A stretch of DNA of 64,000 nucleotides from an uncultured Methylomirabilota bacterium (GTDB lineage: Bacteria > Methylomirabilota > Methylomirabilia > Methylomirabilales > 2-02-FULL-66-22): assembly GCA_963845565.1 (NCBI GenBank), contig CAWJSJ010000002.1:640001-704000 (forward strand), given 5' to 3'. Positions 42,094 to 59,269 of this stretch are shown piece by piece; the stretch's first letter is position 1, and each line of letters starts with the position of its first letter. The notes beneath the pieces were generated by a model. The model was not told the origin of the DNA. It saw nothing but the letters and a program-made list of their open reading frames with translations, and did not search any database. A program made the translations under genes and the position numbers.

Positions 42094-42442
42094 TAGGTAT
42101 CGCCGCGCCCAGGGCTGTGCCGTGACTCTCACCGTCGGTACGCTCCACTCCTCCACTGGGTCAACACTTGCCATGAACTAACATTGGGGGTGGACCAACC
42201 CGTGGGCGGCAGGCCACTGCGCTATTCTTGATGGCGACTTACATCGTGACCCCAAAAAGCTACCGGACTCCATTTAGGGGCTACGTGCCTGAATACGTGG
42301 GGGGTGTGTCCAATTCGTGGCCATGGGTGGGTCTGGCGAGGACACCGTGAAACCGCCTCCGGTGGTGGAGGAACTCGTGCGTCCGGTGCAGTGGGTTGAG
42401 ATGCCACGCGCGCCGCGGGTGGTGGACCCAGGCGCCTGTTCG

Positions 42443-42532
42443 GCCGCCGCGCCCGGCTACCTGGTCCACGCCGGCGAGGTCCGCTTCCCGCTCGCCCCGG
42501 GCGTCACGGCCCTGCCATTCGCGGAGTTCTAA
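42443..42532 (+). pseudogene. C-terminal fragment resembling AAA/DUF4143 ATP-binding proteins
   Basis: AAPGYLVHAGEVRFPLAPGVTALPFAEF-stop; no convincing upstream body. Confidence 0.3.
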
Positions 42533-42819
42533 TGATCCGGGACCCGGCCGTTTCTGCGGTGTCAAGGCAAGATCCTCCTCAGGATGCGGCGTGCTGACCG
42601 TATCGCCCACCTGTTATCTGCCGTCGTCCCCCGAGGCCGCTCCGGGAGAACCTCTCACGCCCCATCGTAGTGGTGCCATCCGGCCGGCTCGCTGCCTCGA
42701 GCGACCCACCCGGCCTAGTCCGGGCTCTTGAGAGCGGGAGCGGCGCGCCAGTGTCCCGCCGCGGTCGCGTTGCGGCGCCGCCACGATGCACATCTCGCGC
42801 TGCCGACTCCCCGCACAAT

Positions 42820-43030
42820 CGGGTCAGGTCTTGAATTGTGCCTTGCCTACCGTTCACGGTTCGGCTGATGGTACTGTCGTCGAGACTGGTGGCCCGGCCG
42901 ATCTCGGAGAGCCTGACGAGCATTGCCCCGGCTGATGACGTGAAACACCGCCCCCGGGTACTCGATGCGCAGCGGTCGCGCCCTGGGTCCTCCTGCTCCG
43001 AGGGATGCCGCACTACGAGACCTGACCCCC
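42820..43030 (-). mobile_element. Internally deleted RAYT (REP-associated tyrosine transposase) element with terminal inverted repeats
   Basis: IRs GGGTCAGGTCT/AGACCTGACCCC; ARPLRIEYPGAVFHVISRGNARQ N-terminus fused out of frame to EIGRATSLDDSTISRTV; start codon reads AGG after a GGAGG RBS. Confidence 0.75.
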
Positions 43031-43055
43031 ACTTCGTGAGGCGGCGTGGGTCTCG

Positions 43056-44054
43056 CTACCGGGGAGACGCCAAGTGGCGGACGGCCTGGATGATCCCATG
43101 GCCGACGCGGGCAAAGGCGGGAGGCGTCAGCTTGTCCGGGATGTCCTCGGGGGCATGGTAATGGGGATATCGAAACGGGGCGGTGTCGGTCAGCATGAGG
43201 GCGGGGTATCCCTCTTTCCAGAAGGACCAGTGATCGGACCAGTTGATGCCGGGAAGCATCTCGAACGTGGCGACCCCTTCCACGGGGAAGTCGCTGACTG
43301 CCATGAACGCGCGAAGAAAATCGATCGCCAGCGGGCGTGACGGGAGATTGCCGACGACCGCCAGGAAATTGCCCGCACTCGGATAGAGCAAGCCGAAGGG
43401 AAATGGGTAGGATTGACCGCCTGAGGCATCGGAGTAGTAGCCGATCGTCTCCAGCGACACCATCGCCACGATCGCCTCGCCCCGCTGCCTGGCATTCCTG
43501 GCGTGCACGCGGCTGCCCATATCCTCCGTGAAGAAATGCGGCGGCTCTTCGTTCGTGAAGGCGACAAAGCGGAGGGTCCTCTGGAGCGGTGCCTGTCTGA
43601 AGGCGCGAGACATTTCGAGCAACAGCGCCACGCCCGACCCGTTGTCGTTGGCCCCGGGGGTGCCGGGGGCGGTGTCGTAGTGGGCCCCGACCAGGACGAT
43701 CTCCTGAGGCCGCCCGACGCCTCGGAGCTCGATGATGAGGTTCTCACACGGCCGGCCGTCGACCTGGAAGGCCTCCGTCTTGACCGTGAAACCCTGGTCG
43801 GTCCAGGTCTTCCGGATATACTCGGCGGCAGCCTGGAGCTCATTGGGTCGGGCAAGATGCCGCTGGCCGATCGTGCCGCCGAGCATCCGGACATGGGGCA
43901 TGAGGCGCGCTTCGAGGGCGGCGATGTCGGCGCGGATGGCTGGCGTCATGGTGGGGCGGGTCACGTCCGGCTTCACATCGATCATGACGCGATACCCGAT
44001 CACGGCCAGGATGGCCAGAACGACCAGGATCCCTGAGAATACCCAGATGCGCAT
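43056..44054 (-). CDS. M28 family metallopeptidase
   Basis: GAHYDT; GANDNGSG; FTNEEPP; SDHWSF; YPHYH. Confidence 0.9.
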   Translation of the reverse strand: MRIWVFSGILVVLAILAVIGYRVMIDVKPDVTRPTMTPAIRADIAALEARLMPHVRMLGGTIGQRHLARPNELQAAAEYIRKTWTDQGFTVKTEAFQVDGRPCENLIIELRGVGRPQEIVLVGAHYDTAPGTPGANDNGSGVALLLEMSRAFRQAPLQRTLRFVAFTNEEPPHFFTEDMGSRVHARNARQRGEAIVAMVSLETIGYYSDASGGQSYPFPFGLLYPSAGNFLAVVGNLPSRPLAIDFLRAFMAVSDFPVEGVATFEMLPGINWSDHWSFWKEGYPALMLTDTAPFRYPHYHAPEDIPDKLTPPAFARVGHGIIQAVRHLASPR

Positions 44055-44350
44055 GGGTCACCCCCGGCGACACCACGGCCACGCCGTGCGGATCAGGCGT
44101 TCGTCTCGATGATTGCATGCCCACGCCGGAGGCCTGTGCCCCCTCCGGGATGCAGGGGCCCATCTCCTCTCAAAGCTGAAGCCGGGCACACCCTCTCGGG
44201 CACTGAATCTGGGGCCCTCTCTTCGTGCCCATTACTATACTCCCTTTTCCTCTTGACCGTCGCGTCCGGTGCGCCGGATACTGCAAACTGACCTTGCGGC
44301 ACCACCCAGCCGGGTTGCCGGAACCCCGAGGAAACCGCAATGGAGAAGGC

Positions 44351-45085
44351 ATGTGTACAGCCCCCGAGACCGCACTTCCACCGCCCCCGGACTATGCCGA
44401 CGTCGCACGCACCGTCGATGACGCGATCACGTCGCGCCGGTCCGTTCGGGCCTTTCTGCCAGCGCCGGTGCCACGCGCGCTGATCGAGCACATCCTGGAG
44501 GTGGCGTCGCGCGCGCCGAGCGGAACCAACATGCAGCCCTGGTGCGTCCATGTGGTGGCGGGCGAGGCGAAGGACAAGCTGTCCCGCGCCATTCTCGACG
44601 CCCATGAGGCGGGCGGCGAGGGGCACACGCGGCCCTGGAAATACTATCCCGACGAGCTCTTCGAGCCCTATCTGAGCCGGAAGCGCGCGGTCGGCTGGGG
44701 GCTCTACGGCCTGCTCGGAATCGGCAAGGGCGACCACGCGCAGATGAAAGCGCAGCGGGCGCAGAACTACCTGTTCTTCGGCGCGCCGGTCGGCATGTTC
44801 TTTACCCTCGACGCCCGGCTCGAGATCGGCAGTTGGCTCGACTACGGCATGTTCATTCAGAGTATCATGACCAGCGCGCGGGGCCACGGCCTGCACACGT
44901 GTCCGCAGGCTGCCTTCGCAGACTATCACCGGATCATCCGCGCCCATCTCGGCCTCCCGGAGGATCACACCGTGATCTGCGGCCTGTCGATCGGATACGA
45001 GGACACAGAGGCGGTCGTGAACAGGCTGCGGACGGACCGCGTTCCGGTCAGCACGTTCGCCCGCCTTATCGGCTACGAGAGCTGA
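44351..45085 (+). CDS. Nitroreductase family protein
   Basis: SRRSVRAF; RAPSGTNMQPW; GLHTCPQAA. Confidence 0.92.
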   Translation: MCTAPETALPPPPDYADVARTVDDAITSRRSVRAFLPAPVPRALIEHILEVASRAPSGTNMQPWCVHVVAGEAKDKLSRAILDAHEAGGEGHTRPWKYYPDELFEPYLSRKRAVGWGLYGLLGIGKGDHAQMKAQRAQNYLFFGAPVGMFFTLDARLEIGSWLDYGMFIQSIMTSARGHGLHTCPQAAFADYHRIIRAHLGLPEDHTVICGLSIGYEDTEAVVNRLRTDRVPVSTFARLIGYES

Positions 45086-45245
45086 TTGACCCTCGGTGCC
45101 GGCCAGTCGCCATCGGTGGCCGATTTGGGTTCCCGCGCCGATCCTGCGAACAGGCGCGTCCGGGTTGGCGAACGCGCAGGTCATTGCCCGCTCCAGTCGA
45201 TCCCCCATGATCATCGCCGAAAGCCGATTGGGAAACGTGAGAAGC

Positions 45246-46538
45246 ATGGGATCGGAAAGAAAGCACGGGGACCGCAAACTGGGCCTCTTCTACGGCTGGA
45301 AGATCGTCGGGACGGGCATCCTCGGCATGATCCTGGTCTATGGGGTCCGCCATTCCTTCGCCGTGTTCTTCACCCCCATCCTGGACGAGTTCCATTGGAG
45401 CCGGGGCAACATCGCCATCATGATGTCCCTGAATATTTGTGCGTACGGGTTTCTGGCCCCCGTGGCGGGGATCCTGGCGGACCATTGGAGGGCCCGGGTC
45501 CTGATGCCCCTGGGAATCGCCATTCTCGGGGCGGCCACCGCGGGGTGCGCCTGGGCGGAGGAACTCTGGCACTTCTATGTGCTCTTCGGACTCCTCATGC
45601 CCCTCGGCAGTGCGCTGGCCGGCTGGCCCATCATCGCGCCCGCCCTCATGAATTGGTTCGTCCGAAAGCGCGGCCTCGTCATGGGTATCGGGCAGATGGG
45701 CGGTGGGCTGAGCTTCGCGTACACCATATTTGTGAACTACTTGATCCTTCACGTTGGATGGCGGCTCACCTTTCTGGTGTTGGCGGGCATCCTGGTTTTC
45801 GTTCCCTTGCCCCTATATTTGCTTTTCTTCTATTATCGACCCCGGGAGAAAGGGCTCACACCGTATGGCTCAGCCGACATGCCCGAGGTTTCAACGCGAG
45901 AAGCACCCGGGGCCGCCGGAGGCGTCTCCCCGACGCGCGATTGGACCCCCGCCCAGCTGCTCCGCGCCCCTCAACTGTGGCTGCTGGTGTTGTCGTATGC
46001 GCTCTACTGGGGCGTCGGGAACTACCTGGTCCTGGCCCATCAGGTGCGATTCGCAGAGGATGCGGGCTACGGCAGCATGTTCAGCGTCTCCATCTTCGCG
46101 CTGTTCGGGGTGACCCTTTTCCTGGGCCAATCCTGTGGGTTCTTGTCGGACCGAATGGGCAGGGAGCGGGTGGCCACGCTGGCCGCCGCGTTGTCCATCC
46201 TTGCCCTGGCGGCCCTCATGTCCGTACGCGACACGTCCCACCCTTGGCTCTTGTACGCGTACTCCATCGGCTTTGGCCTGGGGGGAGGGCTCTTCACGCC
46301 CACCATTTACGCCGGAGCTGCGGATATCTTTGCTGGCCAGTATTTTGGCGCCGTGTCCGGCCTGCTTCTCACCGGCATGGGGGTCGCCGCGGTCTTCGGC
46401 CCGTGGCTGGGCGGTCACATCTATGATGTGGCCGGCACCTACCGCCCCGCCTTTCTCCTCTGCATCGTCTGCATCGCCCTTGCCTGCCTGGCCTTCTGGA
46501 TCGCCGCGCCCCGGAGAAGGCCCACCCCGAGTCGATGA
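45246..46538 (+). CDS. MFS transporter (OFA-like)
   Basis: FYGWKIV; about 12 TM helices; GFLSDRMGRE motif. Confidence 0.88.
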   Translation: MGSERKHGDRKLGLFYGWKIVGTGILGMILVYGVRHSFAVFFTPILDEFHWSRGNIAIMMSLNICAYGFLAPVAGILADHWRARVLMPLGIAILGAATAGCAWAEELWHFYVLFGLLMPLGSALAGWPIIAPALMNWFVRKRGLVMGIGQMGGGLSFAYTIFVNYLILHVGWRLTFLVLAGILVFVPLPLYLLFFYYRPREKGLTPYGSADMPEVSTREAPGAAGGVSPTRDWTPAQLLRAPQLWLLVLSYALYWGVGNYLVLAHQVRFAEDAGYGSMFSVSIFALFGVTLFLGQSCGFLSDRMGRERVATLAAALSILALAALMSVRDTSHPWLLYAYSIGFGLGGGLFTPTIYAGAADIFAGQYFGAVSGLLLTGMGVAAVFGPWLGGHIYDVAGTYRPAFLLCIVCIALACLAFWIAAPRRRPTPSR

Positions 46539-46912
46539 AGCATTCCCGAACGCACCACCAGCGATTGGGGGTCGATCACCCCTGGACGGTAGGGCCCGCG
46601 ATGTGGCAGCAGGAAAGCCAAGTTGGGATTGGTCACCGGCTGAGCCCGCCGGACATCAGACCGCCCACTATCACCACACGTCGTGCGACCGTTTTGCGGG
46701 ACGGTGTTGCCTGCATGAACTTCCAGCAAGAACACTCGCCGCCACGACGAGCAGCACCGGTCATCCTGCATAGCGGCCCGTCCAACGATCCCGATGCTGA
46801 CGTGTCTTCGGCTCAGCAACCCGGGCAGTCCTTTCGACCCGGCAGGTCCGCTTTGTGGTAACATGCCGCCGCATTTCATCCCATGCGCGCGGCGAACGAA
46901 AAGGAGGTGCCA

Positions 46913-48025
46913 ATGAAGGTCACGACGGTGGAACCGATGGTTCTTGAGGCCCCGGTCAAGGAGCCGTGGCGGATTGGCACGGCGGTGTACACCAGCATGC
47001 ACGCCATGCTGGTCCGGGTGGAGACGGATGAGGGCATCACCGGGTATGGCGAAGGCCTGGTCCGGTTCTCGCCCCGGGCCGGCGCGGCGGTAGTCCGGGA
47101 CATTCTGGCGCCGGTGGTGATCGGCCAGGACCCGTTCGAAGTGGAGCTGGTCTGGGACAAGATGTACGGCATGATGCGGGGCCGGGGGCACTCCAAGGGG
47201 TTCATGCTGGAGGCGATGAGCGCAGTGGACATCGCGCTGTGGGACATCGTCGGCAAGGCATTGGGCCAGCCACTGCACCGAATCCTCGGGAGCTACGGGC
47301 GGTCCAGTCTTCCCGTCTACGCGTCGTCGCTCCTCTTCAAGCCCATCGAGGAGCTGGTCCGCGAAGCGGCGGGTCTGGCGGCACAGGGGTACACCGCCAT
47401 CAAGCTCAAGATCGGCCAGGGCGCGGAGGCCGATCTGGCGAAGGTGCGGGCGATCCGCACGGCGCTGGGGAACGGCGTGCGGCTGATGGTGGATGCGAAC
47501 TGCGCCTACGACACGCTCACCGCGCTGCAGATCGGACGGCTCTTGGAGGCGGAGGGCGTCGCCTGGTTCGAGGAGCCGGTCGCGCCCGAACTCCTCGATG
47601 GCTACGTCAAGCTGGCGCAGGCGCTGGACATGCCGATCGCCGGCGGGGAGACCGAGTTCACGCGCTGGGCGTTCAAGGAGATTCTCACCCGGCAGGCCAT
47701 GGACATCATTCAGCCCGACATCGGTCGTGTGGGCGGGTTCAGCGAGGCCCGAAAGATCGCCGCGCTCGCCAGCGCCTTCGACGTTCCGGTCGGACCGCAC
47801 ACGGGAGCCTCGGCGGCGGTGGCCGTGGCTGCGTCGGTCCAGTGGGCGGCGGCACTTCCCAACCTGCTGACGTTCGAGTACATGTATCCGCCCAACCCGC
47901 TGCGGGAGGAATTGCTGATCGACCCGCTCCCCGCGCCGAAGAACGGTCAGATGGGTGTGCCCCAGCAGCCGGGGCTGGGGATCGAGGTGGACGCGAAGGC
48001 CTTGGCGCGTTTTCGGACCGCATAG
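46913..48025 (+). CDS. Mandelate racemase/muconate lactonizing enzyme family protein
   Basis: AVDIALWDIVGK; KLKIG; VDAN; FEEPV; GGE; QPD; AAGGAGGT RBS. Confidence 0.92.
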   Translation: MKVTTVEPMVLEAPVKEPWRIGTAVYTSMHAMLVRVETDEGITGYGEGLVRFSPRAGAAVVRDILAPVVIGQDPFEVELVWDKMYGMMRGRGHSKGFMLEAMSAVDIALWDIVGKALGQPLHRILGSYGRSSLPVYASSLLFKPIEELVREAAGLAAQGYTAIKLKIGQGAEADLAKVRAIRTALGNGVRLMVDANCAYDTLTALQIGRLLEAEGVAWFEEPVAPELLDGYVKLAQALDMPIAGGETEFTRWAFKEILTRQAMDIIQPDIGRVGGFSEARKIAALASAFDVPVGPHTGASAAVAVAASVQWAAALPNLLTFEYMYPPNPLREELLIDPLPAPKNGQMGVPQQPGLGIEVDAKALARFRTA

Positions 48026-48215
48026 CAGGCTGCTGAAAACGGCCCATCTGCCGCGTTGGCTTGCTCGGGCACTCGTTGCGGCGTACCTGGAGTACGCCTT
48101 GACCCACCTGCGGTGGGTACCCCGCCCCGGGTACCCATCCACAGGATGGGTGACGCCGCCTTGCATCTGGACCTTTTTGAGCAGCCTGAGTGAAAGCGTG
48201 TTCTTCAGCCTCCTG
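48026..48215 (+). mobile_element. MITE-like element, family B (copy 2, with a nested palindrome)
   Basis: CAGGCTGCTGAAAA...TTCTTCAGCCTCCTG followed by CTAG; begins right after a TAG stop; homologous to 31719-31888. Confidence 0.8.
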
Positions 48216-48244
48216 CTAGTCCCTGTGCTTGAGAGTCCCCATCC

Positions 48245-48466
48245 CTACGCCGGGATGAACTCCTCCGCCTGCGTGCCGCACATCGGGCAAAGGGCCGGAG
48301 GGCGATCCGACTCGATATGCGCGCACTCGGGACACAGGAAGAGCTTGATGTCGATGACATCGTGGCCTTGGGTCGGCGTTGCCAGCGCCACGGCGCAGAG
48401 CTTGGCGTGGACGGCCTCATCCTTCATCAGGTGCGACAGGGACTTCCGATCCGTCTGGCTCTCCAT
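48245..48466 (-). CDS. Rubredoxin-like domain protein (truncated rubrerythrin paralog)
   Basis: EAVHAKL...FLCPECAHIE...CPMCG..EEF aligns to the C-terminus of 53190-53687; AAGGAG RBS. Confidence 0.6.
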   Translation of the reverse strand: MESQTDRKSLSHLMKDEAVHAKLCAVALATPTQGHDVIDIKLFLCPECAHIESDRPPALCPMCGTQAEEFIPA

Positions 48467-48818
48467 GGTAACGCTCCTTCGGGATTCAAGAGTCACTCGA
48501 TCGTTCCGCCCGCCTTGGCGAATTCCCCGGTAAACAGGGGCTGAGAATTCTCGTCACATCCTGCCGACTTTTTTCACGCACCGAGTGCATGGCACGGTCA
48601 ATTTCCCACCACCGGGAAGAACCAGCGTTGCTGTGCGATCCAGGCCGCATGGTCCGGACCCCTCTCTGCTTGCGTGTGTCGTCACACCCCACGATCCACC
48701 CGACGGAACATCTGGGGATCTTGCGCATCTTGTGCCATGTGTTCCCCGCGACGCGCATGGCGCACGAGAGGGCGTCAGCCGGAAGCGGAGATTGCGCGAG
48801 GGAAAGGCGGGGAATCCC

Positions 48819-48836
48819 TTGGCATCGGCCGTGCAG
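48819..48836 (+). promoter_or_regulatory. Putative sigma54 promoter of the DUF4388 cluster
   Basis: TTGGCATCGGCCGTGCAG has GG-N10-GC spacing; inverted repeat GGAACATCTGG/CCATGTGTTCC at 48705-48745 upstream. Confidence 0.5.
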
Positions 48837-48949
48837 TGCCAGGTGCCCAGGCGGGATCGAGCGCCGAGATCCTCCGTCATGCATCGTCCCGCCCGCCCCG
48901 GTGAAAGCCCCCGGCTGGGGCGTCAGGTTATGGGAGAGAGGGGTCGCGC

Positions 48950-49648
48950 ATGTCTCTCATCGGCACGCTGAAAGACCTCAGTCTGTTCAACCTGGTCCAG
49001 CTGCACTGCTGCGAGCGACAACAAGCACAGGTGTCCCTGGCGCACGGCGACTGCGACGGGAGACTGGTCTTTGCGGATGGCGAGCTGGTGTTCGCCGCCG
49101 TGGGTGGTCTGGTGGGTGGGGAGGCCGTGCACGAGCTGCTGACGTGGGAGGACGGGGATTTCCGCGTCGACTACGAGCCTGCGCCCGTCGTGCGGAACGT
49201 CCGGACCCCATGGAGCGAGCTGCTCCTCGAAGGGGTCCGGCGGCTGGATGAGGCGCGCGCCGCGCGGGATGCGCGCCTGGAAGCCACCCTGCGGAGCATG
49301 AAGGGTACGCATGGGCTGCGCGCCACGGTGGCAACGAACACGACGGGCCAGGTCCGGGCTGCCGCCACCGCAGGGCCGGCAATGGCGGAGGCGGCCTTGG
49401 TGGCACTTCTCGCCGGGCGGCTGGAAACCATCGGAGGACTGCTGCACTGCGGGGCGTGCAGGGAAGTCAGCGTCTCCGGCCCCAGCGAGACAATCTGGAT
49501 TGCACGGAGAGACGGCGCCTATCTGGCGTGCTGGCTCGACGGACGGGCGGCTCTCCATCCGGTCAAGAGGCTGTTGCAACCGCTGCTCTCGTGGGAGCGG
49601 ACCGACGCGCCGCAGGAAGCGCCGGACGCGTCGTCTTTGAGCCGTTGA
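48950..49648 (+). CDS. DUF4388 domain plus Roadblock/MglB-like domain protein
   Basis: GTLKDLSLFNLVQL...GGEAVHELLTWEDGDF...LLLEGVRRLDE; C-terminal region has a Roadblock-like pattern. Confidence 0.8.
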   Translation: MSLIGTLKDLSLFNLVQLHCCERQQAQVSLAHGDCDGRLVFADGELVFAAVGGLVGGEAVHELLTWEDGDFRVDYEPAPVVRNVRTPWSELLLEGVRRLDEARAARDARLEATLRSMKGTHGLRATVATNTTGQVRAAATAGPAMAEAALVALLAGRLETIGGLLHCGACREVSVSGPSETIWIARRDGAYLACWLDGRAALHPVKRLLQPLLSWERTDAPQEAPDASSLSR

Positions 49649-49661
49649 GCGGGAGGCGCGG

Positions 49662-50675
49662 ATGATCTTTCCCCAGGACCGTGTGGTGTACGAGCACCTG
49701 AACACGTCGTTCACGCAGCTGGACGCGATGCTCACCGAGCTGAAGGCGGAACTCTTTTGCGGGTACGTCCGCCTCACGGCGCGGGACTACGACGGTCTCG
49801 TGCTCCTCGAGGCGGGCCGCGTGCCGAACGCCATCGAAGACGCGAAGGGCCGGCGTCGCACCGGCGCCAAAGCCGTGGATGGAATCCTTGCCAAGAGCCG
49901 CGAACGCGACGGCATGATCAGCGTCTTCCAGCTCTCGGACGGGATGACCCAGCTCCTGGCAGACCTCGCCGACAGCCACGTCCTGTACAAGGACCTGACA
50001 AGCGATCTGACCAGCCTGGATCGGCTGCTCGCCGGCCTGAAGGGCCGACGCCATACCGGCTTCATTGACGTCCAGATACCGGGCCGCCCCGAGACCGCCA
50101 CGATCTTCCTGCGGGACGGCGACGTGCTGGAGGCCACACTCTCCCGGCACGGAAACATCAGCGACGGCCCGAAGGTCTTGGATGAGCTGACCCGGCTCGC
50201 TGCGTCCGAGGGCGCGGTGTTTACGGTCCACGGTGCGCAGATCGCCCCGCCGGAGAACGAGAGCCAGCCGCCGCGGGGACCGGATCGTCAAGAGCAGCTC
50301 GGGGTCTGGCAGGATGTGCTCAAGACCGTGGAGACCAGCGTGGACACGCCAACGAAGGCGGGGACGTTCATGGTCGCGTTCAAGCGGGCGTGCATCGAGC
50401 TGGCGGACACCTACCCATTCCTCGACCCTTTCGCGGCCGAATTCGAGTACCGGGAAGGCCAGATCCGGTACGAAGGGCAGGCGGGCGGAGCCGAGCTCAA
50501 CCAGGGACTCGGCCGATGTCTCGCGCAGTGCGTCCGCGCGCTGACGGGTCACCCGGCCACCGCCGACCTGCCGGCGCGGCTGTCGGCGGTCGCCGTGGGC
50601 TTGAAAAAACGGCACGGCGCGCGGTTGGCGGAGTACGGATTGCCGGAGGCGCTTCCCGAGGTCTTCGGCGCCTAG
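49662..50675 (+). CDS. Protein with two tandem DUF4388/DUF2226-like repeats and a helical C-domain
   Basis: Internal repeat VVYEHLNTSFTQLDAMLTELK..FCGYV / VLYKDLTSDLTSLDRLLAGLK..HTGFI; YPFLDPFAAEF. Confidence 0.7.
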   Translation: MIFPQDRVVYEHLNTSFTQLDAMLTELKAELFCGYVRLTARDYDGLVLLEAGRVPNAIEDAKGRRRTGAKAVDGILAKSRERDGMISVFQLSDGMTQLLADLADSHVLYKDLTSDLTSLDRLLAGLKGRRHTGFIDVQIPGRPETATIFLRDGDVLEATLSRHGNISDGPKVLDELTRLAASEGAVFTVHGAQIAPPENESQPPRGPDRQEQLGVWQDVLKTVETSVDTPTKAGTFMVAFKRACIELADTYPFLDPFAAEFEYREGQIRYEGQAGGAELNQGLGRCLAQCVRALTGHPATADLPARLSAVAVGLKKRHGARLAEYGLPEALPEVFGA

Positions 50676-50691
50676 CGGCTGGGAGCCCGGC

Positions 50692-51210
50692 ATGGCGAAC
50701 ATCGTTACCCAAGAGGTCACCCTCGCCTGGAGCGGCGTGCGGCTCGCCCTTCTCAACGAACGATGCCAGGCCCTGTTCGAGGAGCTGACGCGGGTGGCCG
50801 GGGTCCAGGGGGCCTGCGTCTGCGACAACCATGGCGGGGTGCTCGGGCTGCTGCTCGCCGGTGCGGGCGACCGCCGCATGTTCGAGGGGATCGGGCTTGC
50901 CCTCAGCCAGTGTTTCGGTGCGTTGAATGCGCGGTCCGCTTTCCGGGATCTCGAGGTCGTGTTCGAGAGCAAGACGGTGGTCGCGCGCGACCTCGGCAAC
51001 GCCACGCTCGCCGTGGTGTGCGGCCCGGACGCCAATCTGCCCCTCCTGCGCATGACCCTGAATGTGGCAGCCAACCCGTTCGAGGGTGACGCCGAGCTTC
51101 AGCGCGGCCTCCAGCAGGCGGCGCCCTCCCGGGCGAATACGCTGAAGGGAGAGCGCCTGGACGCCCTGGCGCGAGCGCTCCTTCACCGCGCCGGTGCGAG
51201 GGCTGCCTGA
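50692..51210 (+). CDS. Roadblock/LC7 (MglB-like) protein
   Basis: LTRVAGVQGACVCDNHGGVL...LAVVCGPDANLPLLRMTLNVA. Confidence 0.7.
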   Translation: MANIVTQEVTLAWSGVRLALLNERCQALFEELTRVAGVQGACVCDNHGGVLGLLLAGAGDRRMFEGIGLALSQCFGALNARSAFRDLEVVFESKTVVARDLGNATLAVVCGPDANLPLLRMTLNVAANPFEGDAELQRGLQQAAPSRANTLKGERLDALARALLHRAGARAA

Positions 51211-51680
51211 TGGCGGGAACGAACCTCTCCGGCGTCATCTTCACACTGTCCAACCGGGAGCCGTCGACCGACGTGACGGTCACGCCGGCTGCCTGGCGCG
51301 TGCTGGCCCATTGCGACGGCGTACGTTCCGTGGCGGAGATTGCCCGGGTTGTGGCGATGGACGAGGCGGCCGTGGCCCAGGTGGCGGACACCTTCTTCCG
51401 GTGCGGCATCCTGCAACTGGCCGCCGGAAGTCCGGCGCCACCCCGCCCGCCGGTCAGCAAAGCCTTCTTCGATCAACTCACCAATGAACTCGCGCGGGCC
51501 ATCGGCCCCTTGGCCGCGTTCACCGTGGAGGACGAGATTGCGGCGCTTGGCGAGGCCCGGGACAACTTTCCGCGCGATGAGATCCCGGCACTCGTCGAGC
51601 GTCTGAGCCACGGAATCCGCGACGACGCCAGACGGCTCGGATTCCAGCAGGTCATGCTGGAGGCGATTCGCAAGCTGTAA
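51210..51680 (+). CDS. Winged-helix plus small helical-domain protein
   Basis: WRVLAHCDGVRSVAEIA winged helix; ELARAIGPLAAFTVEDEIAALG helical domain; translationally coupled to the upstream gene. Confidence 0.65.
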   Translation: MAGTNLSGVIFTLSNREPSTDVTVTPAAWRVLAHCDGVRSVAEIARVVAMDEAAVAQVADTFFRCGILQLAAGSPAPPRPPVSKAFFDQLTNELARAIGPLAAFTVEDEIAALGEARDNFPRDEIPALVERLSHGIRDDARRLGFQQVMLEAIRKL

Positions 51681-51740
51681 CGCCTTGCCGGTTCGCGGAA
51701 GCGATCGCCCCGGCGGAGGGGCCACCGAAAGGAGCGCGCT

Positions 51741-53000
51741 GTGGCAACCGCGACGACATCCACGATCTACGCTCGGGTGAATCCACCGAAGGTCCGTCCC
51801 TGGCGCATGCGCAGCAGGGTGGTGGTGATCCTCTTGCTCGTATCGCAGATTCCCCTGATCTGCGTGGCAGGCTTTACCATTCTTACGGCCCGCAAGGCGC
51901 TGCTGGACCAGGCGAGCATCAACATGCTGAGCGTCACCACGGAAGTGGCGCGCGAGATCGACAACCAGCTGCTCGGGTGGCGTGAGAACATCGTCGCCAT
52001 GAGCCAAATGCCCGAGATCATCGCGTACGCGGCCAAGCCGACGGAGGCGACGGCGAAAACCGCCATGGCGGCCCTCAAGGCGGAGGCGACCAAGGCGAAT
52101 TACCAATCGGTCGCGATTTGCCGGGATGGAAAGATCGTCCTGTCCTCCTCGGACCCGGACGTGGGTGCGGACGTCTCGTTTCGCGCCTACTTCAACGAGG
52201 CCATGAAGGGTCAGGTGATCGTGACGGAACCGTCGATTTCCACCACAACCAACAAGCCGGCTCTCTTCATGAGCTCCCCCATCCGCGACGCCAACGGCGA
52301 AGTGCTGGCCGTTGTGCGCAGCCGGCTCGATCTGTACGGGATCTGGGATCTTGTCGAGAAGGCGGCGGTCCAATCGGTTCCGGGCACGACCGCCATGCTG
52401 CTGGACGACGATGGGATCCGGATCGCCCACAGCGCCAGCAAGGGCCAACGCGAGGCCGTGGCCAAGACCCTGTTGTACCGCGCGGTGGCCCCCTTGACTC
52501 CGGAGGCCACACGGGCGATCGTGACGGAAAAGCGCTTCGGGAATTTCACGACCGATCGCGTGGACGTGCTCCCACTCCCCGAGGTCGCGGCCGCCTTCAA
52601 GGCGGGGCAGGCGACGACCTTCGAGGCCTTGGCAGACAACAGCACGCTGCGTCACCAGTCGGCGGCCGTGCCGCTGGAAACCAAAAACTGGCGCTTGGTC
52701 TTGCAGGCGCCACAGCCGTCCTTCACCAGCGCCGCCGTCAAGATGACGCAGATCGGCGGGGTGGCTGCCGCCGTGTTCGGCCTGTTGACCGTTCTGGCGG
52801 CATTCTTCATCGCGCGCGGGATCACGTCGCCCCTGGTACAGCTGGCGGATGTGGCCGATCGCATCAGTCTCGGCGAGTTGAACGCGAAGATCCGGATCGA
52901 TCGGCAGGACGAAATCGGCGACCTGGCCGAAGCGTTGCGTCGCATGCAAGTGAGCCTTCAGACGGCCATCGAGCGACTGCGGGCCAAACGCAACGCATAG
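51741..53000 (+). CDS. Membrane sensor: TM-Cache-TM-HAMP with no output domain
   Basis: DVSFRAYFNEAMKG and ALFMSSPIRDANGEVLAV Cache motifs; HAMP PLVQLADVADRISLGEL...DEIGDLAEALRRM; ends about 17 aa later. Confidence 0.85.
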   Translation: MATATTSTIYARVNPPKVRPWRMRSRVVVILLLVSQIPLICVAGFTILTARKALLDQASINMLSVTTEVAREIDNQLLGWRENIVAMSQMPEIIAYAAKPTEATAKTAMAALKAEATKANYQSVAICRDGKIVLSSSDPDVGADVSFRAYFNEAMKGQVIVTEPSISTTTNKPALFMSSPIRDANGEVLAVVRSRLDLYGIWDLVEKAAVQSVPGTTAMLLDDDGIRIAHSASKGQREAVAKTLLYRAVAPLTPEATRAIVTEKRFGNFTTDRVDVLPLPEVAAAFKAGQATTFEALADNSTLRHQSAAVPLETKNWRLVLQAPQPSFTSAAVKMTQIGGVAAAVFGLLTVLAAFFIARGITSPLVQLADVADRISLGELNAKIRIDRQDEIGDLAEALRRMQVSLQTAIERLRAKRNA

Positions 53001-53189
53001 CTGTTCGCCGCGGGCCCCGTTGGGGCCACGCCTGTCGGCGTGGGCCTCTTCAGTCAGAAACGGGCTCGCCCAGCGTATGGTGCCATAACACACAGGCGGC
53101 CCCTTGGGTGATATGACCCAAGGGACCGCCTGCTGTTCCCGCACTCACGATCCCGCCTCGTCGGGCACAACCCAAGCCCGCATGCATCC

Positions 53190-53687
53190 TTACACCTGGA
53201 TGAACTCCTCCCCCAGTTCGCCGCAGATCGGACATGATGCCGGAGCCTCGCCCAGCTCGATATGCCCGCACACGGGACACAGGAAAAACTTGGTCTCGGT
53301 GAGGTCTTTGCCCTGCTTCACGGCCTCCAGGGCCATGGCGTAGAGCTTTGCGTGGACGGCCTCGGCCCGCACGGCGTAGCCGAACATCCGCTTGGCCGCG
53401 TGCTTGTCTGCGGTCGCCTGGGTGAGCATGGGGGGGTACATCTGGGTGTACTCGTGCGTCTCGCCGCCGATGGCCGCCTGGAGGTTCGCGGCCGTGGCCC
53501 CGATCCCGCCCATGGCCTCCAGGTGGCCGTGGGCGTGAATCGTCTCGGCCTCCGCGGTCGTCCGGAACAGGCGTGCGATGTTCGGGAACCCGTCCTGGTC
53601 CGCCTTCTTCGCGAACGCCAGATACTTCCGGTTGGCTTGACTCTCGCCGGCAAACGCCTCCTTCAGATTCTCCGGTGTGCTCGCCAT
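53190..53687 (-). CDS. rbr: Rubrerythrin
   Basis: AFAGESQANRKY; AETIHA; GETHEYTQMYP; EAVHA; CPVC...CPIC. Confidence 0.92.
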   Translation of the reverse strand: MASTPENLKEAFAGESQANRKYLAFAKKADQDGFPNIARLFRTTAEAETIHAHGHLEAMGGIGATAANLQAAIGGETHEYTQMYPPMLTQATADKHAAKRMFGYAVRAEAVHAKLYAMALEAVKQGKDLTETKFFLCPVCGHIELGEAPASCPICGELGEEFIQV

Positions 53688-53985
53688 GGTCACCCTCCTC
53701 CGTCTCCATCGGTTAAAAGAAGACACCCCGCCATCGGGCCCGTACGCGACATCCTACCCATATCCGTACGCCGAATTCCCGCGGGCGTCAATCCCCAGCT
53801 TCCCCAGGATTGGACATTGTCTAAAAGACCGAATCAACCCGGCAGGGCCATCCGGAGAATCGGCGGCGGCTGGACGCTGATGGTGGGGAACCTGGTGTGA
53901 CCCGCGCCCGCTGGGCGCGAGCAAAGGTCCCGGCGGGATCCCCGTTCGATCGGGCGAACCCCGCGGCCCCTCATCGGGATGCCGC

Positions 53986-55002
53986 TCAGGCCCCGGATGC
54001 CGCGACCCCGCGGGCCGCGCGAAGCTCTCCCATGAGCTGGGCGAAGCCGGCGGGGTCGAGCGACTGCGGGCCGTCGCAGAGGGCGTGGGCCGGGTCGGGG
54101 TGGACCTCCACCATGACGCCGGCGGCGCCGACCACGAACGCCGCCTTGGCCATGGGGGTCACCAGATCGCGACGCCCCAGCGCGTGGCTGGGGTCCACGA
54201 TGACCGGCAGATGCGTCACCTGGCGGAGGAAGGGGACGACACCCAGGTCGAGGGTGTTGCGGAGCGCCCGCTCGAACGTGCGGATGCCCCGTTCGCAGAG
54301 AATGACTTGGTCGTTTCCTTCCAGCAGGATGTACTCGGCCGCGGCCAGGAATTCTTCCAGCGTGGCACTCATGCCCCGCTTCAAGAGAACCGGTTTCCCG
54401 ATGTGGCCGAGCTCTTTGAGGAGATCGAAGTTCTGCATGTTGCGGGCGCCGACCTGCAGGCAGTCGGCGACGGCGGCGACCGGCTCCAGCTGATCGATGC
54501 GCATGACCTCGGTGACGATGGGCAGCCCGACCGCCCGCCCCGCCTCCACCAGGTATTCCAGCCCCTCGTATCCCAGGCCCTGAAACGTGTGGGGCCCGGT
54601 GCGCGGCTTGAAGGCTCCGCCCCGCAGGATGCCTGCGCCGGCGGCCTTCACCGCCCGGGCGGTCGTGAGGACCTGGTCCCGGCTTTCCACCGTGCAGGGG
54701 CCCGCGATCACGATCGGAGCCAGCCCCCAACCCACCGCGATCCCGCCCACGCGGACCACCGAGTCGGCCGGGTGAAAGTCCCGGCTCACCAGCTTGTAGG
54801 GCTTGGTGACGTGGATCAGCTCCTGGATGCCCGGCAGGTCGCGGAACGGCTCTTCGTCCACGTACCCCTGATTGCCGAGCACCCCGATGGCGACCCGATT
54901 CTCGCCCGGGATGGGCTGGGGCGTGTACCCGAGCCGCCGCACCGCGTCGAGCACCGCGCCGACCTGCTCCTGGGTTGCCTTGTGTACCATGACGATGAGC
55001 AT
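53986..55002 (-). CDS. aroF: 3-deoxy-7-phosphoheptulonate (DAHP) synthase, type I-beta with N-terminal regulatory domain
   Basis: [45 protein letters not shown]. Confidence 0.93.
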
Positions 55003-55262
55003 GAACACCTCCGCAAGGGTCCTGGGCGCGCGGGCCGCCGCGTTGGCGGCTCTACCCGCCACGAGATCTCAGACGTCGGCACAGAGTTGCACAGCAGAAA
55101 CGATTTGTCCACGGCGCCGTATCGTTCCGGTCACATCGTTACAGCCTTGACGCCCTTCCACCTGCCGTGATACCTAGCGAGTGTCGCAACGGGACGAGGG
55201 ATCTGCGCGGTCGGTCTGAGGCCGGCCGGTCCCACGAGGGGCGTTTCGCGAGGAGGGGCACC

Positions 55263-55940
55263 ATGCCGACGACAGCACGCGTGACATTCTCATCCGAGGC
55301 GGGACAAGCAGAAGGGCACGTGGCTCGACCGGGGAAAGCCGTGCCGGGGATCATCGTTCTCCAGGAATGGTGGGGGCTCGTGCCGCACATCAAGGATGTG
55401 GCGGCCCGCTTCGCCGCCCAGGGGTACGTCGCTCTGGCACCGGACCTGTACCACGGCAAGAGCACCCTGGAGGCCGCCGAGGCCCAACACCTGATGGAGG
55501 GACTGGACTGGGGACGGGCGGCGAAGGAGATCGCCGGCGCCGTCCGGTACCTCCGGGAGGTCGAGGGGGCGACGCGGGTGGGCGTCACGGGCTTTTGCAT
55601 GGGCGGGGCGCTCACCATCATCGCGGCCACGCAGCCCGGCGTGGATGCCTACGTCGCGTTCTATGGATTCCCGCCCGCGGGGGCGGCGCCCGTCGAGCGC
55701 ATCACGGCCCCCGGCATCCTCTTTTTCGGCGAAAAGGAGGAATACTTCTCCGTGCCGGATGCCCAGGCCTTCGCCGAGGGACAACGGAAGCGCGGGCGCG
55801 AGGCCGAGGTGGTGGTCTATCCCGGTGCCGGCCACGCCTTCTTCAACGACACGCGCCCCGAGGCATATCGGAAAGAGGCGGCCAACGACGCCTGGCGGCG
55901 GACGCTGGACCATTTCGGCCGCCACCTCCGTCTCGGCTAG
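55263..55940 (+). CDS. Dienelactone hydrolase family protein
   Basis: QEWWGL; GFCMGG; YPGAGHAFFND. Confidence 0.92.
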   Translation: MPTTARVTFSSEAGQAEGHVARPGKAVPGIIVLQEWWGLVPHIKDVAARFAAQGYVALAPDLYHGKSTLEAAEAQHLMEGLDWGRAAKEIAGAVRYLREVEGATRVGVTGFCMGGALTIIAATQPGVDAYVAFYGFPPAGAAPVERITAPGILFFGEKEEYFSVPDAQAFAEGQRKRGREAEVVVYPGAGHAFFNDTRPEAYRKEAANDAWRRTLDHFGRHLRLG

Positions 55941-56031
55941 CCGCCTGCCCGCCTCCCCGTGATGACCGCGCGCCGCCCACCGGGTGCGACCGGTTGCGGA
56001 GCGTTGCGCGGGCGTCGCCCCAAGGAGACGC

Positions 56032-56502
56032 ATGGAGATCTATCTGGTCCGCCATGGCGAGGCCATCTCGGCGCTGGTCGAGCCGACGCAACCGCTTGGC
56101 GATCGCGGGCGGGCAGAGGCGACCCACGTCGCCCGCCACGCGGCAGCATTCAAGGTGCAGGTCGCGGAGATCCGGCACTCGACCAAGCTCCGCGCGAAGC
56201 AGACGGCCGAGATCCTGGCCGCCCACCTTGCGCCCGTGCGCGGCGTTCACGAGGTGAATTACTTGGCGCCCTCGGCCGACCCCGGCCGGGCGCAGGATGC
56301 AGTGGAGAAGGCGACCGAGCCGCTGATGCTGGTCGGCCACCTCCCGCACCTGGCGCGGCTGGCGTCCTTGCTGCTGGTGGGGGACGCCCATCGCGAGATC
56401 GTCCGGTTCCGAACGGCCGCCATGGCGCGGCTGGAACGCACCGACCGGGGCTGGGCGCTGAGCTGGATCCTCACGCCGGACCTCGTCGGCCCCGGGACGT
56501 GA
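56032..56502 (+). CDS. sixA: Phosphohistidine phosphatase SixA
   Basis: YLVRHGEA; HSTKLRAKQTAE; LVGHLPHL. Confidence 0.88.
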   Translation: MEIYLVRHGEAISALVEPTQPLGDRGRAEATHVARHAAAFKVQVAEIRHSTKLRAKQTAEILAAHLAPVRGVHEVNYLAPSADPGRAQDAVEKATEPLMLVGHLPHLARLASLLLVGDAHREIVRFRTAAMARLERTDRGWALSWILTPDLVGPGT

Positions 56503-56529
56503 CCCGCAGGTGGGATCTCCTTTGCGGCG

Positions 56530-57549
56530 TCAGGTCTCGCCGCCGCCGGGCAAGCCGAAGGCCTGGGCCAGGAGCTCATAGGAGCGGAGCCGGGCCTTGA
56601 AATCGTGCGTGATTGTCAGGACCACGAACTCGCTCACCCCGCAGCGCCCTCCCAGCTCCTCCAGCCGACGGCGCACCTGCTCGGGCGTGCCCACCACACT
56701 TCGCAGACGGGCATCCCGCAGGATCACCTGCTCCTGCGGCGTGTACGGGTACGCCTCGGCCTCCTCGACGGTCGGATACGGACCGGACCGGCCGGTGTAG
56801 AGCCGTACCAGGAAGAGGTCGCGGCTCCTGGCCAGCCGCGCGGCCTCGGCGTCCGTGTCCGCGCACACGACGAAGACCGCCAGACTGGCTTCCGGCGCGG
56901 CGAGGGCGGCCGACGGCCGGAAATGATGCGCGTAGGCGCGGATCACGGCATCCGCCCCACGGCTGTTGATGAAGTGTGCGAAGGAGAAAGCCGTCCCGCA
57001 GGTCGCCGCCAGGGCGGCGCTCTGGTCGCTGGAGCCCAGGAGCCACACAGGCGGCGCGCCGGGCCCGGCAGGCATCGCGGTGATCCCGGCACAGGGGTGG
57101 TCGGACGGGAGATCGTTCCGGAGAAAGCCGATCAGGTCAGCGACCTTCCGCGGGAACTGCTCCACCGCCAGGGCGGCGGTCTCCGGCGCCAGGGCCGCCG
57201 CGGTCCGCGGGTCGCTGCCGGGGGCTCGGCCGATCCCCAGGTCGATCCGGCCAGGGAACAGGGTCTCCAGCATCCGGAAGTTCTCGGCCACCTTGAGGGG
57301 GCTGTAGTGGCTCAACATCACGCCGCCCGACCCCACGCGGATCCGGGTGGTGCGCGCCGCCACCTGGCCGATCAGGATCTCCGGGCTGGAACCGGCCAGC
57401 GCCGGCGTGGCGTGATGCTCGGCCAGCCAGTACCGGTGGTAGCCGAGCCGGTCCGCGATCCGGGCGAGCTCCAGGGTTTCCTGCAGGGCCTGGGCCGGCG
57501 TACCGCCGCTCCGGATGGGGGACTGATCCAAGACGCTGAGCCGGGTCAT
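56530..57549 (-). CDS. LLM-class (luciferase-like) flavin-dependent oxidoreductase
   Basis: LSVLDQSPI; YWLAEHH; GSGGVML; DLGIGRAPG. Confidence 0.92.
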   Translation of the reverse strand: MTRLSVLDQSPIRSGGTPAQALQETLELARIADRLGYHRYWLAEHHATPALAGSSPEILIGQVAARTTRIRVGSGGVMLSHYSPLKVAENFRMLETLFPGRIDLGIGRAPGSDPRTAAALAPETAALAVEQFPRKVADLIGFLRNDLPSDHPCAGITAMPAGPGAPPVWLLGSSDQSAALAATCGTAFSFAHFINSRGADAVIRAYAHHFRPSAALAAPEASLAVFVVCADTDAEAARLARSRDLFLVRLYTGRSGPYPTVEEAEAYPYTPQEQVILRDARLRSVVGTPEQVRRRLEELGGRCGVSEFVVLTITHDFKARLRSYELLAQAFGLPGGGET

Positions 57550-57580
57550 GGCGAGACTCCTGTGCTGGTGGCGGGCGGAC

Positions 57581-57606
57581 CGGGTACCCATCCGCCAGGA
57601 TGGGTG
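57581..57606. repeat. REP-like palindrome, family D
   Basis: CGGGTACCCATCC-gcca-GGATGGGTG; near-identical to 48128-48152. Confidence 0.6.
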
Positions 57607-57618
57607 CGGTGTCACCGC

Positions 57619-57666
57619 TTAAGCCCGCATCGTTCGCGAGTTGTGTTCGCGAATAATGCGGGCTAG
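57619..57666. repeat. Palindromic repeat, family C
   Basis: AGCCCGCATcgTTCGCGA...TCGCGAAtaATGCGGGCT bounded by TTAA and CTAG; related to 9363-9408. Confidence 0.6.
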
Positions 57667-57809
57667 AGGGTACGCGGGTTAGGACGAGGGGGCAACCTCA
57701 ATAACCGATGTGCGGGCTCATTGGCCACTGGGAAACGCCAGGGACGTGGTATAGTCTGTCCGCCACGGCGAGGACGACGCGGTACCATGGAGGTGGGGAG
57801 GCTTTTCGG

Positions 57810-59201
57810 ATGGGCGAGATTCTTCTGCTGCTGATCGGCGCCGTGGTCGGCGGCGCTCTGGGATGGCTCTGGGCGACGCGTCGGGGCCGGGCGGAACACG
57901 CCGCCTGCGTGCGGGACCTGGAGAATCGCCTGGCGACGCAGGAAGGCGGCGGCGCCGCGATCCGGGAGCAACTGGAGAATAGTCGGCGGGAGATTGACCG
58001 TCTCCAGGCCGATCTGCGCGCGATCACCGCCCAGAAAGCGGACGCCGAGGCGCGGGCCAGCGAGATCCGGGCCAGCCTGGAGGAGCAGAAACGCCTCCTG
58101 GAAGAGGCCAAGACGCGCCTCACGGAGGCCTTCCGCGCGCTGGCCGCCGACGCGCTGAAGAGCAGCAACGAAGATTTCCTCCGCCTGGCGGAGGAGCGGT
58201 TCAAGGCGCTCACCCAGGCGGCAACGGGCGAGCTGGAGGCCCGCAAGACCGCGGTCGAAACCCTCGTCCAGCCGTTGCAGCAGGCCCTGGAGGCCTACCA
58301 GAAAGAGGCCCGGGAGCTGGAGGAGAAGCGACTGCGAGAGATCTCGGGCGTGAGCCGGCAGCTCGGCGACGTCGCCCTGGCGCAGACGGCGCTGCAGCGC
58401 GAGACGGCGAATCTGGTGAACGCCCTGCGGGCGCCGCAGGTCCGGGGTCGCTGGGGAGAGATCGCGCTTCGCAAGACCGCCGAGCTGGCCGGCATGACGA
58501 AGTACTGCGACTTCGACGAGCAGGCCAGCGTCCAGACCGAGGGCGGGCGGCTGCGGCCGGACATGATCGTGCACCTTCCCGCCCAGCGCGACATCGTGGT
58601 GGATGCCAAGGTGGCGTTGAACGCCTATCTGGAGTCCCTGGAGGCCTCCACCCCGGAATCGCGCGAGGCGGCCCTGGTGCGCCACGCCCAGCAGGTTCGA
58701 ATGCACGTCAAGCGGCTGGCGTCTAAGGAGTACTGGAGCCAGTTCCCGCAGGCGCCGGACTTCGTCGTGCTGTTCATCCCGGGCGAGGTCTTCTTCGCGG
58801 CCGCGGCGGAGCGGGACCCGGAGCTCTTGCAGGATGCGCTGTCGAATCAGGTGCTGATCGCCACCCCGACGACCTTCATCGGGCTGCTCCTGACGGCGGC
58901 CTACGGGTGGCGACAGGAGCAGATTGCGGAGAACGCCCAGCGGATCAGCGAACTCGGTCGCCAGGTCCATGAGCGACTGAGCGTGCTCGTCGAGCACTTC
59001 GCCGGGGTCGGCCGCGCCCTGGAAAAATCGGTCGAGGCGTACAACAAAGCGGTCGGCTCGCTGGAAACACGGGTCTTGCCGTCTGCCCGCCGGTTCGCGG
59101 AACTGGATCCGGGGAGCGGGAGGCCGATTCAGGGACTGGAGCCGATCGCCCAGGCGCCCCGGGCGCTGGCGGTCCGGGATGGGGTCGGGCCGGAGACGTG
59201 A
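57810..59201 (+). CDS. rmuC: DNA recombination protein RmuC
   Basis: N-terminal TM and coiled coil; RGRWGE; LRPDMIVHLP; VVDAK; PDFVVLFIPGE; ATPTT. Confidence 0.92.
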   Translation: MGEILLLLIGAVVGGALGWLWATRRGRAEHAACVRDLENRLATQEGGGAAIREQLENSRREIDRLQADLRAITAQKADAEARASEIRASLEEQKRLLEEAKTRLTEAFRALAADALKSSNEDFLRLAEERFKALTQAATGELEARKTAVETLVQPLQQALEAYQKEARELEEKRLREISGVSRQLGDVALAQTALQRETANLVNALRAPQVRGRWGEIALRKTAELAGMTKYCDFDEQASVQTEGGRLRPDMIVHLPAQRDIVVDAKVALNAYLESLEASTPESREAALVRHAQQVRMHVKRLASKEYWSQFPQAPDFVVLFIPGEVFFAAAAERDPELLQDALSNQVLIATPTTFIGLLLTAAYGWRQEQIAENAQRISELGRQVHERLSVLVEHFAGVGRALEKSVEAYNKAVGSLETRVLPSARRFAELDPGSGRPIQGLEPIAQAPRALAVRDGVGPET

Positions 59202-59207
59202 TGGGCG

Positions 59208-59236
59208 TTGACATGCCGAAGGGCATTGGGTAGCCT
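59208..59236 (+). promoter_or_regulatory. Sigma70 promoter upstream of the thermonuclease gene
   Basis: TTGACA 59208-59213, 17-bp spacer, TAGCCT 59231-59236. Confidence 0.6.
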
Positions 59237-59269
59237 TCTCGTGCGGCGGTCAGTGCGGACCCACCGCCG

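Follow-up and report, generated by a model that had tools for sequence, protein, structure and literature searches.

A conserved five-gene cassette encoding an output-less HAMP receptor, a STAC-like protein and PATAN/Roadblock proteins in a Methylomirabilota bacterium

Af1503 of Archaeoglobus fulgidus is a model HAMP receptor that has been described without a recognisable effector module. In genomes, receptors like Af1503 occur coupled to STAC proteins carrying an LGPx(x)A motif, STAC domains having been defined as their partners by gene position (passages of PMC4834066), and the role of these domains was still called unclear in 2026 (passages of PMC13022988). A second receptor of this kind, the Cache-HAMP protein CHH of Pseudomonas azotoformans, lacks an output domain and binds the small helical bundles of its partner through HAMP (passages of bioRxiv 10.64898/2026.05.25.727664). 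We analysed a stretch of 64,000 nucleotides from an uncultured Methylomirabilota bacterium (contig CAWJSJ010000002.1, positions 640,001 to 704,000; hereafter the window), which holds at 48950-53000 on the + strand a five-gene cassette ending in such an output-less receptor. Its other proteins belong to a different setting. DUF4388 is the PATAN domain, which in cyanobacteria binds the pilus motor (passages of bioRxiv 2021.06.11.447907); PATAN genes lie near mglA and mglB in the neighbourhood of group-1 MglA (passages of PMC4316618); and MglC is the precedent for a Roadblock protein without GTPase-activating protein (GAP) activity (passages of PMC4719450). We find that the cassette is real and conserved and that all its parts come from known families. 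It is also uncharacterised in the searchable literature, since our searches, whose coverage leaves out most subscription journals and supplements, returned no description of it and no papers on DUF4388+roadblock or DUF8082.

The output-less receptor and its STAC-like neighbour

The cassette consists of five co-directional open reading frames with intergenic gaps of 13, 16, -1 and 60 bp, genes 3 and 4 overlapping by stop and start. A first-pass annotation, made from the letters of the DNA, had listed a tightly spaced array of DUF4388 fused to Roadblock, two tandem DUF4388-like repeats, a stand-alone Roadblock, a winged helix with a small helical domain, and a TM-Cache-TM-HAMP receptor stopping right after HAMP. 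This inventory was borne out in every protein; the start of gene 1 moved from 48819 to 48950, a third domain of gene 2 had been missed, and the helical part of gene 4 is newly assigned as STAC-like. The reported lack of kinase, methyl-accepting chemotaxis protein (MCP), GGDEF and receiver motifs was likewise upheld. Pfam found none of these families, and no GTPase family, in the five proteins, and the NCBIfam kinase and MCP models matched far below their cut-offs, on gene 5 only, over the stretch from the second transmembrane helix (TM2) to HAMP or, in one weak match, the Cache domain.

A gene-2 alignment search of a species collection found 166 loci, whereas a single-protein search of genome contigs found nothing. 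The best 80 of the 166, together with the window and three congeners, make up the 84-locus set used below, which spans Chloroflexota, Thermodesulfobacteriota, Calditrichota, KSB1 and others. The synteny that the first-pass annotation had asked after is supported across phyla, with variable gene order and fusions.

Gene 5 (51741..53000, +, 419 aa) encodes a first transmembrane helix at about residues 27-45, a dCache_1 sensor at 52-244 (Pfam, E 2e-18), TM2 at about 340-358 and HAMP at 356-407 (E 8e-14), with hydropathy peaks at residues 27 and 340; 12 residues after HAMP the frame stops. HAMP is the only cytosolic domain besides this short tail, and the relatives end alike. The tail is conserved (consensus RMQxSLxxAIERLR) and the TM2-HAMP-tail segment has 61% mean column identity among relatives, while the sensors under which the common tail is found vary between dCache_1, dCache_2-like, 4HB/TarH-like, zinc ribbon and none recognised. 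A tail-type receptor occurs in 75 of the 84 loci, 74 of these receptors stopping within 8 residues and one having a proline-rich extension; in 79 metagenome loci selected by the tail alone, the receptor ends within 10 residues in 76 and after 15-16 in two, and in one it runs off its contig. In all 72 database homologues (E<=1e-10; 230-734 aa searched) the recognised families are Cache, zinc ribbon and HAMP alone, with no output family, and HisKA and HATPase are absent from them as from gene 5. A screen of 751 candidates of 735-2095 aa gave no longer relative at E<=1e-6, which is weak evidence. A convergent rubrerythrin gene ends just 189 bp beyond the gene-5 stop, which leaves no space for a frameshifted output domain. 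By its sequence, gene 5 is a dimer-type receptor with a cytoplasmic part of HAMP and a short conserved basic helix only, and with an exchangeable sensor; the homologues compared have no kinase or MCP domain of which it could be a truncation. No ligand is assigned, because the dCache domain matched only PctC, and weakly (E 0.004).

Gene 4 (51210..51680, +, 156 aa) is composed of a winged helix at residues 2-76, which Pfam recognises weakly, and a four-helix bundle at 83-155; the helical domain is DUF8082 in Pfam 38 and in the Atlas. Its profile gave Af1502 (5a1q) as the top PDB sequence match (E 0.032), and Af1502 was also the best fold match of residues 83-155 (Z 7.2 over 68/68 residues, root-mean-square deviation 3.0; Foldseek target template-modelling score 0.70). 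The GPxxA motif appears as IGPLA between helices H84-98 and H102-112, its G and P invariant in 66 rows and its A near-invariant. Sequence, fold, motif and gene position, each with a moderate score, agree in pointing to a STAC-like domain. The winged helix is closest in fold to non-regulator domains, namely those of the methyltransferase Rv2067c (Z 8.8), GATOR1/SEA subunits (Z 8.1, 7.9) and PqqD (Z 6.5); the matching GATOR1/SEA chains we take to be NPRL2/Npr3-type.

Of the 84 loci, 75 have the receptor and 73 the gene-4 helical domain, with 67 having both; a Roadblock is present in 81 (canonical MglB included) and MglA in 27. Six of the nine loci without the receptor stop at a contig edge; in the other three, the genome has two or three tail-like receptors at other sites, of which the five that we read end right after the tail. 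Selection by the receptor instead of gene 2 yielded 20 loci whose flanks reach at least 3.5 kb upstream and at least 2 kb downstream, in which the STAC-like domain occurs 18 times, a count that overstates independence because many two-gene loci are near-identical, gene 2 eight times and MglA three times. Several of these loci are bare two-gene units of receptor and gene 4 among housekeeping-type genes. Receptor and gene 4 are the smallest recurring unit, a pairing that recalls the archaeal Af1503/Af1502, and it is gene 4, not the Roadblock/DUF4388 genes favoured at first pass as the receptor's companions, that travels with the receptor. Additionally, tail-type receptors are found away from the operon, some of them paired (L094, L095, L096); four of the five have an N-terminal zinc-ribbon-like CxxC motif and the fifth is cut by the contig start. 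Since these receptors sit outside the operon, several receptors may share one scaffold.

PATAN and Roadblock proteins, genomic setting and the MglA neighbourhood

Gene 1 (48950..49648, +, 232 aa) joins a PATAN domain at residues 5-102 (Pfam DUF4388, E 4e-17) to a divergent Roadblock at about 110-213, recognised by profile (46-row alignment against PDB 7f8f, E 1.7e-6). Here PATAN is fused to Roadblock, but in most relatives it is fused to the winged-helix protein. Gene 3 (50692..51210, +, 172 aa) encodes a stand-alone divergent Roadblock with a C-terminal extension; Pfam Robl_LC7 is weak, and the profile matches the solved Roadblock 7yh1 (E 9e-5) and LAMTOR4. The two Roadblocks are homologous (hhalign 95.9%), and both align with the MglB profile at 86-90% in hhalign. 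Against a 24-row MglB profile, gene 1 reaches 3.9 bits and gene 3 -0.8 bits, compared with 166-222 bits for the sequences that make up the profile, and the canonical MglB motif is found in 0/46 gene-1 Roadblocks and 0/55 gene-3 Roadblocks versus 22/23 MglB proteins. Neither sequence resembles a GAP-type MglB. Because of the near-zero scores and the missing motif, we infer that the cassette Roadblocks are of the adaptor type rather than the GAP type. As a separate observation, a Roadblock is fused straight to a STAC-like domain in four loci (L088:1992-2675, L119, L125, L137), and it is therefore suggested that the gene 3 and gene 4 products work together.

Gene 2 (49662..50675, +, 337 aa) contains tandem PATAN/DUF2226-like repeats at residues 5-92 and 104-194 that match each other (hhalign 99.2%, E 2e-19); Pfam DUF4388 is weak, and the Atlas clusters the protein with PatA_N/DUF2226. 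The third domain, at 205-337, is all-helical (predicted local distance difference test score of the model, 88) and has a motif of conserved columns, PFLDPFA.E. The PDB fold search with gene 2 gave no clear match (none at E<=0.001 with Foldseek; best VIA, Z 5.8), and the C-terminal domain matched none of the STAC-like, Roadblock and PATAN profiles. An apparent gene 1-gene 2 fusion in genome G009 was set aside, as the same assembly is frameshifted in gene 5 and in a neighbouring gene. The bacterium's own genome has three further PATAN matches (G000:C1:102857-104519 and C2:1294881-1295174; L012, L013), among them receiver-PATAN-PilZ and receiver-PATAN proteins, which are possible partners of the cassette.

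Among named relatives of gene 2, the closest is from Candidatus Methylomirabilis sp. of the same genus (60% identity). The cassette occurs in 4/20 other genomes of the genus and in 0/20 others of the order, and in three congeners the genes are intact, in the same order and 54-89% identical, one of these assemblies probably having sequencing frameshifts. In the gene-2 tree, five Methylomirabilaceae and seven Anaerolineae-type proteins form one clade (Shimodaira-Hasegawa-like approximate likelihood-ratio support 99-100), and constraining the seven Anaerolineae-type proteins together is not rejected (approximately unbiased test, p-AU 0.256), because of which we claim no transfer donor; both trees are quick searches from which the fragment L089 was left out. 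The cassette lies between a partial rubrerythrin-like frame (48245-48496, -; 45% identical to residues 104-176) and the full rubrerythrin gene (53190-53726, -), an arrangement repeated in G009, and these flanks are possibly the trace of an insertion. Farther upstream, 48026-48188 is a 163-bp element with terminal inverted repeats, resembling a miniature inverted-repeat transposable element or repetitive extragenic palindrome; blastn against the genome gave 298 matches, 68 of at least 100 nt, and in G012 a copy sits between genes 2 and 3. The scan for promoters and terminators found none.

MglA is encoded in 27 of the 84 loci, with canonical MglB just upstream of 24 of the 29 mglA genes, so that the genomic link to mglA expected at first pass exists. 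By their TVPG motif the linked MglAs belong to group 1 and not to group 2. The seven nearest relatives outside the genus, all Chloroflexota, have a receiver-Ras fusion upstream (7/7) and in 5/7 also mglB-mglA downstream; such a fusion of a receiver domain to a Ras-family GTPase stands upstream of gene 1 in seven Anaerolineae-type loci (L015-L020, L022; Pfam Ras E 4e-40). In seven Thermodesulfobacteriota-type loci mglB-mglA and the genes of a kinase and a sigma-54 regulator come next in the operon, which then extends into pilM, pilN and pilO, and MglA is sometimes upstream of pilMNOP in related loci. A complete chromosome (G066, locus L021) shows another arrangement, its operon ending with mglB and no mglA; genome-wide it has a weak 34-residue MglA match and three PilM genes. 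No mglA lies within 42001-60000 of our window, and all five Methylomirabilaceae copies are without flanking GTPase genes. In the own genome the single mglA follows recR and mglB at C2:608.7-609.8 kb, some 80 kb away from the cassette; the genome also has PilM, 8 T2SSE matches (several pilus-type ATPases) and no ATP_bind_1 match.

Proposed signalling chain and rival explanations

We propose the following chain. Ligand binding at the dCache domain would move the HAMP tail, and this tail is probably the docking site of the gene-4 STAC-like domain. Gene 4 would relay the change via its winged helix, PATAN-fused in most relatives, to a scaffold of the gene 1-3 products, whose two divergent Roadblocks would act as adaptors, like MglC, and not as GAPs. 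The scaffold would then bias MglA/MglB or the pilus motor, given that cyanobacterial PATAN domains bind pilus motors. That it acts on the group-1 MglA/MglB switch and the type IV pilus machinery in this very organism is a suggestion about which we are divided, with a slight lean towards doubt; the whole chain, from dCache through tail, gene 4 and scaffold to MglA and pilus polarity, on an Af1503/Af1502-like core and as a horizontally mobile sensory cassette, we hold to be evenly poised. A complex prediction of gene 2, gene 4 and two HAMP-tail chains gave a median of 0.56, falling to 0.00 and 0.05 with the partner replaced; with gene 2 replaced it gave 0.58 and missed the required margin, and we use it neither way.

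Several points weigh against this chain. The STAC matches are moderate, the sequence E value of 0.032 being modest and the Z score of 7.2 lying within the range of common helical bundles, and the sole STAC domain seen in complex, that of CbrA, packs on the SLC5 transporter domain and not on HAMP (passages of PMC13022988). The near-identity of many two-gene loci bears on the core pair. Four incomplete genomes (G073-G076) keep the receptor in the operon but gave no match to the STAC-like profile at any site; that search had no internal positive control, though the same profile did match in a close relative. One relative (L008/L014, G006:C120) keeps only genes 2, 4 and 5; its genome gave no gene-3 match, and its receptor has a proline-rich C-terminal extension. 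As for the output, MglA is near-core in the genus (18/20) and the cassette is patchy (4/20), and the local MglA therefore did not arrive with the cassette. All five parts occur without a local GTPase in 41/84 loci, and in 24/24 tested cassette-bearing genomes of one Chloroflexota clade no MglA was found, the PilM profile giving only short matches there. MglA is, because of these two results, not a universal output.

It is conceivable, if rather doubtful, that the receptor-STAC core needs nothing beyond the PATAN/Roadblock scaffold and that the two together act straight on a target, for example a pilus ATPase or a localisation site, MglA being optional and the recR-linked MglA unused by this copy. 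The Chloroflexota clade in question, of Tepidiforma and Dehalococcoidia, argues for this: all 13 other genomes tested, outside the clade, matched MglA (G066 weakly), and at least 18 of the 24 without it belong to the same order as Tepidiforma flava, whose complete chromosome is one of the 24. No small Ras or ATP_bind_1 proteins were found in the clade, where Ras matches lie in long frames only and ATP_bind_1 covers profile positions 1-37 only, nor was a canonical Roadblock in 4/4 of its genomes; over the 81 genomes of the order the STAC-like domain was detected in 31 and MglA in 0, in a search with no internal positive control that could miss a very divergent GTPase. The lack of the MglB motif in the cassette Roadblocks and the GTPase-free flanks of the five Methylomirabilaceae copies fit as well. 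Yet the GTPase-free genomes, mostly incomplete assemblies with one complete chromosome, form one clade, so that the absence of MglA counts as one loss and not 24, and the own genome does have MglA, MglB and PilM. We regard it as improbable that the gene-4 winged helix is a DNA-binding element whose sequestration or release is governed by the receptor, possibly together with a neighbouring excisionase-like helix-turn-helix protein. MarR, TrmB, IclR and AsnC-type families do match weakly, in up to 22/63 gene-4 members, as do MarR structures. A co-directional HTH_17 gene stands upstream in two separate GTPase-free lineages (L010:6018-6587, L009:9471-10046, L054:809-1474 and similar), with a receiver in two Methylomirabilaceae loci and without one in about 16 Chloroflexota loci. 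However, no HTH_17 gene is upstream within this window, residues 2-76 fold best as the non-regulator winged helices named above, and three PATAN and two Roadblock domains would be left unexplained.

Control of a membrane transporter by receptor and gene 4, the role first proposed for STAC, appears very improbable. The name STAC refers to a link with solute transport (passages of PMC4834066), the domain docks on the SLC5 domain of CbrA (passages of PMC13022988), and in 5 Anaerolineae-type loci the gene after the receptor encodes a solute-binding protein (SBP_bac_3); but such a protein equally suits a co-sensor of the receptor, and no transporter family is conserved as a neighbour across the 84 loci. 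Hardly credible, and already largely refuted, is decay, in which the cassette would be what remains of an mglBA operon and gene 5 a kinase or chemoreceptor cut short. GTPase genes flank the cassette on one or both sides in the closest relatives and are absent here, and presence in the genus is patchy; against decay, the stop position and the tail are kept across phyla, none of the 72 homologues has an output family, the 751 longer candidates included no relative (weak evidence), and three congeners are intact and co-ordered.

Returning to the proposed chain, the cassette names gene 4 as a candidate partner, with a downstream scaffold, for an effector-less HAMP receptor, and it suggests how the MglA polarity switch might receive external signals in the absence of a kinase or chemosensory array; one lineage kept the input side after MglA loss. 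T. flava is a cultured carrier. More tentatively, and on balance with some scepticism, tail-type HAMP receptors with a STAC-like partner might be a widespread kinase-free class of transmembrane signalling, in which interchangeable receptors work on one winged-helix/STAC adaptor and a PATAN/Roadblock scaffold, with a Ras-like GTPase in some lineages and none in others. If true, Af1503-type receptors and free STAC domains would at last have an output.

Comparison with known systems

The first-pass annotation had likened the locus to conservons and Mgl modules. Of its overall interpretation, the synteny, the Roadblock folds, the receptor's end and the MglA link stood, as did both of its options for the GTPase, one encoded elsewhere (recR-mglB-mglA in the own genome) and none at all (none detected genome-wide in Tepidiformales-type relatives); the conservon analogy, a likeness of the Roadblock sequences to MglB-type GAPs and the Roadblock/DUF4388 proteins as the receptor's companions did not. 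Conservon CvnABCD (passages of PMC4316618) shares a HAMP membrane sensor, a Roadblock, a winged-helix-like protein and a small-GTPase link. The likeness is loose, since CvnA has a kinase module and gene 5 none, CvnD is missing, the linked MglA is group 1 and not group 2, PATAN and STAC are extra, and DUF742 was detected on 2/63 gene-4 homologues (best E 8e-4), the window protein not among them. As in the group-1 MglA/MglB module with MglC (passages of PMC4316618 and PMC4719450), Roadblock and PATAN genes occur together, MglA and canonical MglB accompany them in 27/84 related loci, and the extra non-GAP Roadblocks may be likened to MglC by functional analogy. Unlike that module, the operon has no GTPase or canonical MglB, one lineage has no detectable MglA, and a membrane receptor with a STAC adaptor is not part of the module as the cited passages describe it. 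On these features the cassette belongs neither with the conservons nor with coupled mglBA modules.

The closer likeness is to output-less receptors. In common with Af1503/Af1502 (passages of PMC4834066), HAMP is the receptor's sole cytosolic domain and an adjacent gene encodes a four-helix STAC-like domain with GPxxA. In contrast to that pair, the cassette is bacterial, has a dCache sensor and fuses STAC to a winged helix (plus PATAN in most relatives), and its neighbours are PATAN, Roadblock and often MglA, not transporters, no transporter enrichment having been found across the 84 loci. A receptor-STAC contact is predicted here by analogy, and the passages of PMC4834066 show none for Af1503/Af1502 either. 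The CHH receptor and its Ser/Thr kinase likewise comprise an output-less Cache-TM-HAMP receptor, which signals by binding the helical bundles of the neighbouring gene product (passages of bioRxiv 10.64898/2026.05.25.727664); in contrast, our operon has no kinase, the partner candidate is a STAC-like adaptor, and Pfam reported no haem motif, for which no specific search was made. By analogy with both, we infer that the cassette works like the Af1503/Af1502 pair or like CHH and its partner, wired to a PATAN/Roadblock neighbourhood of the type seen near group-1 MglA.

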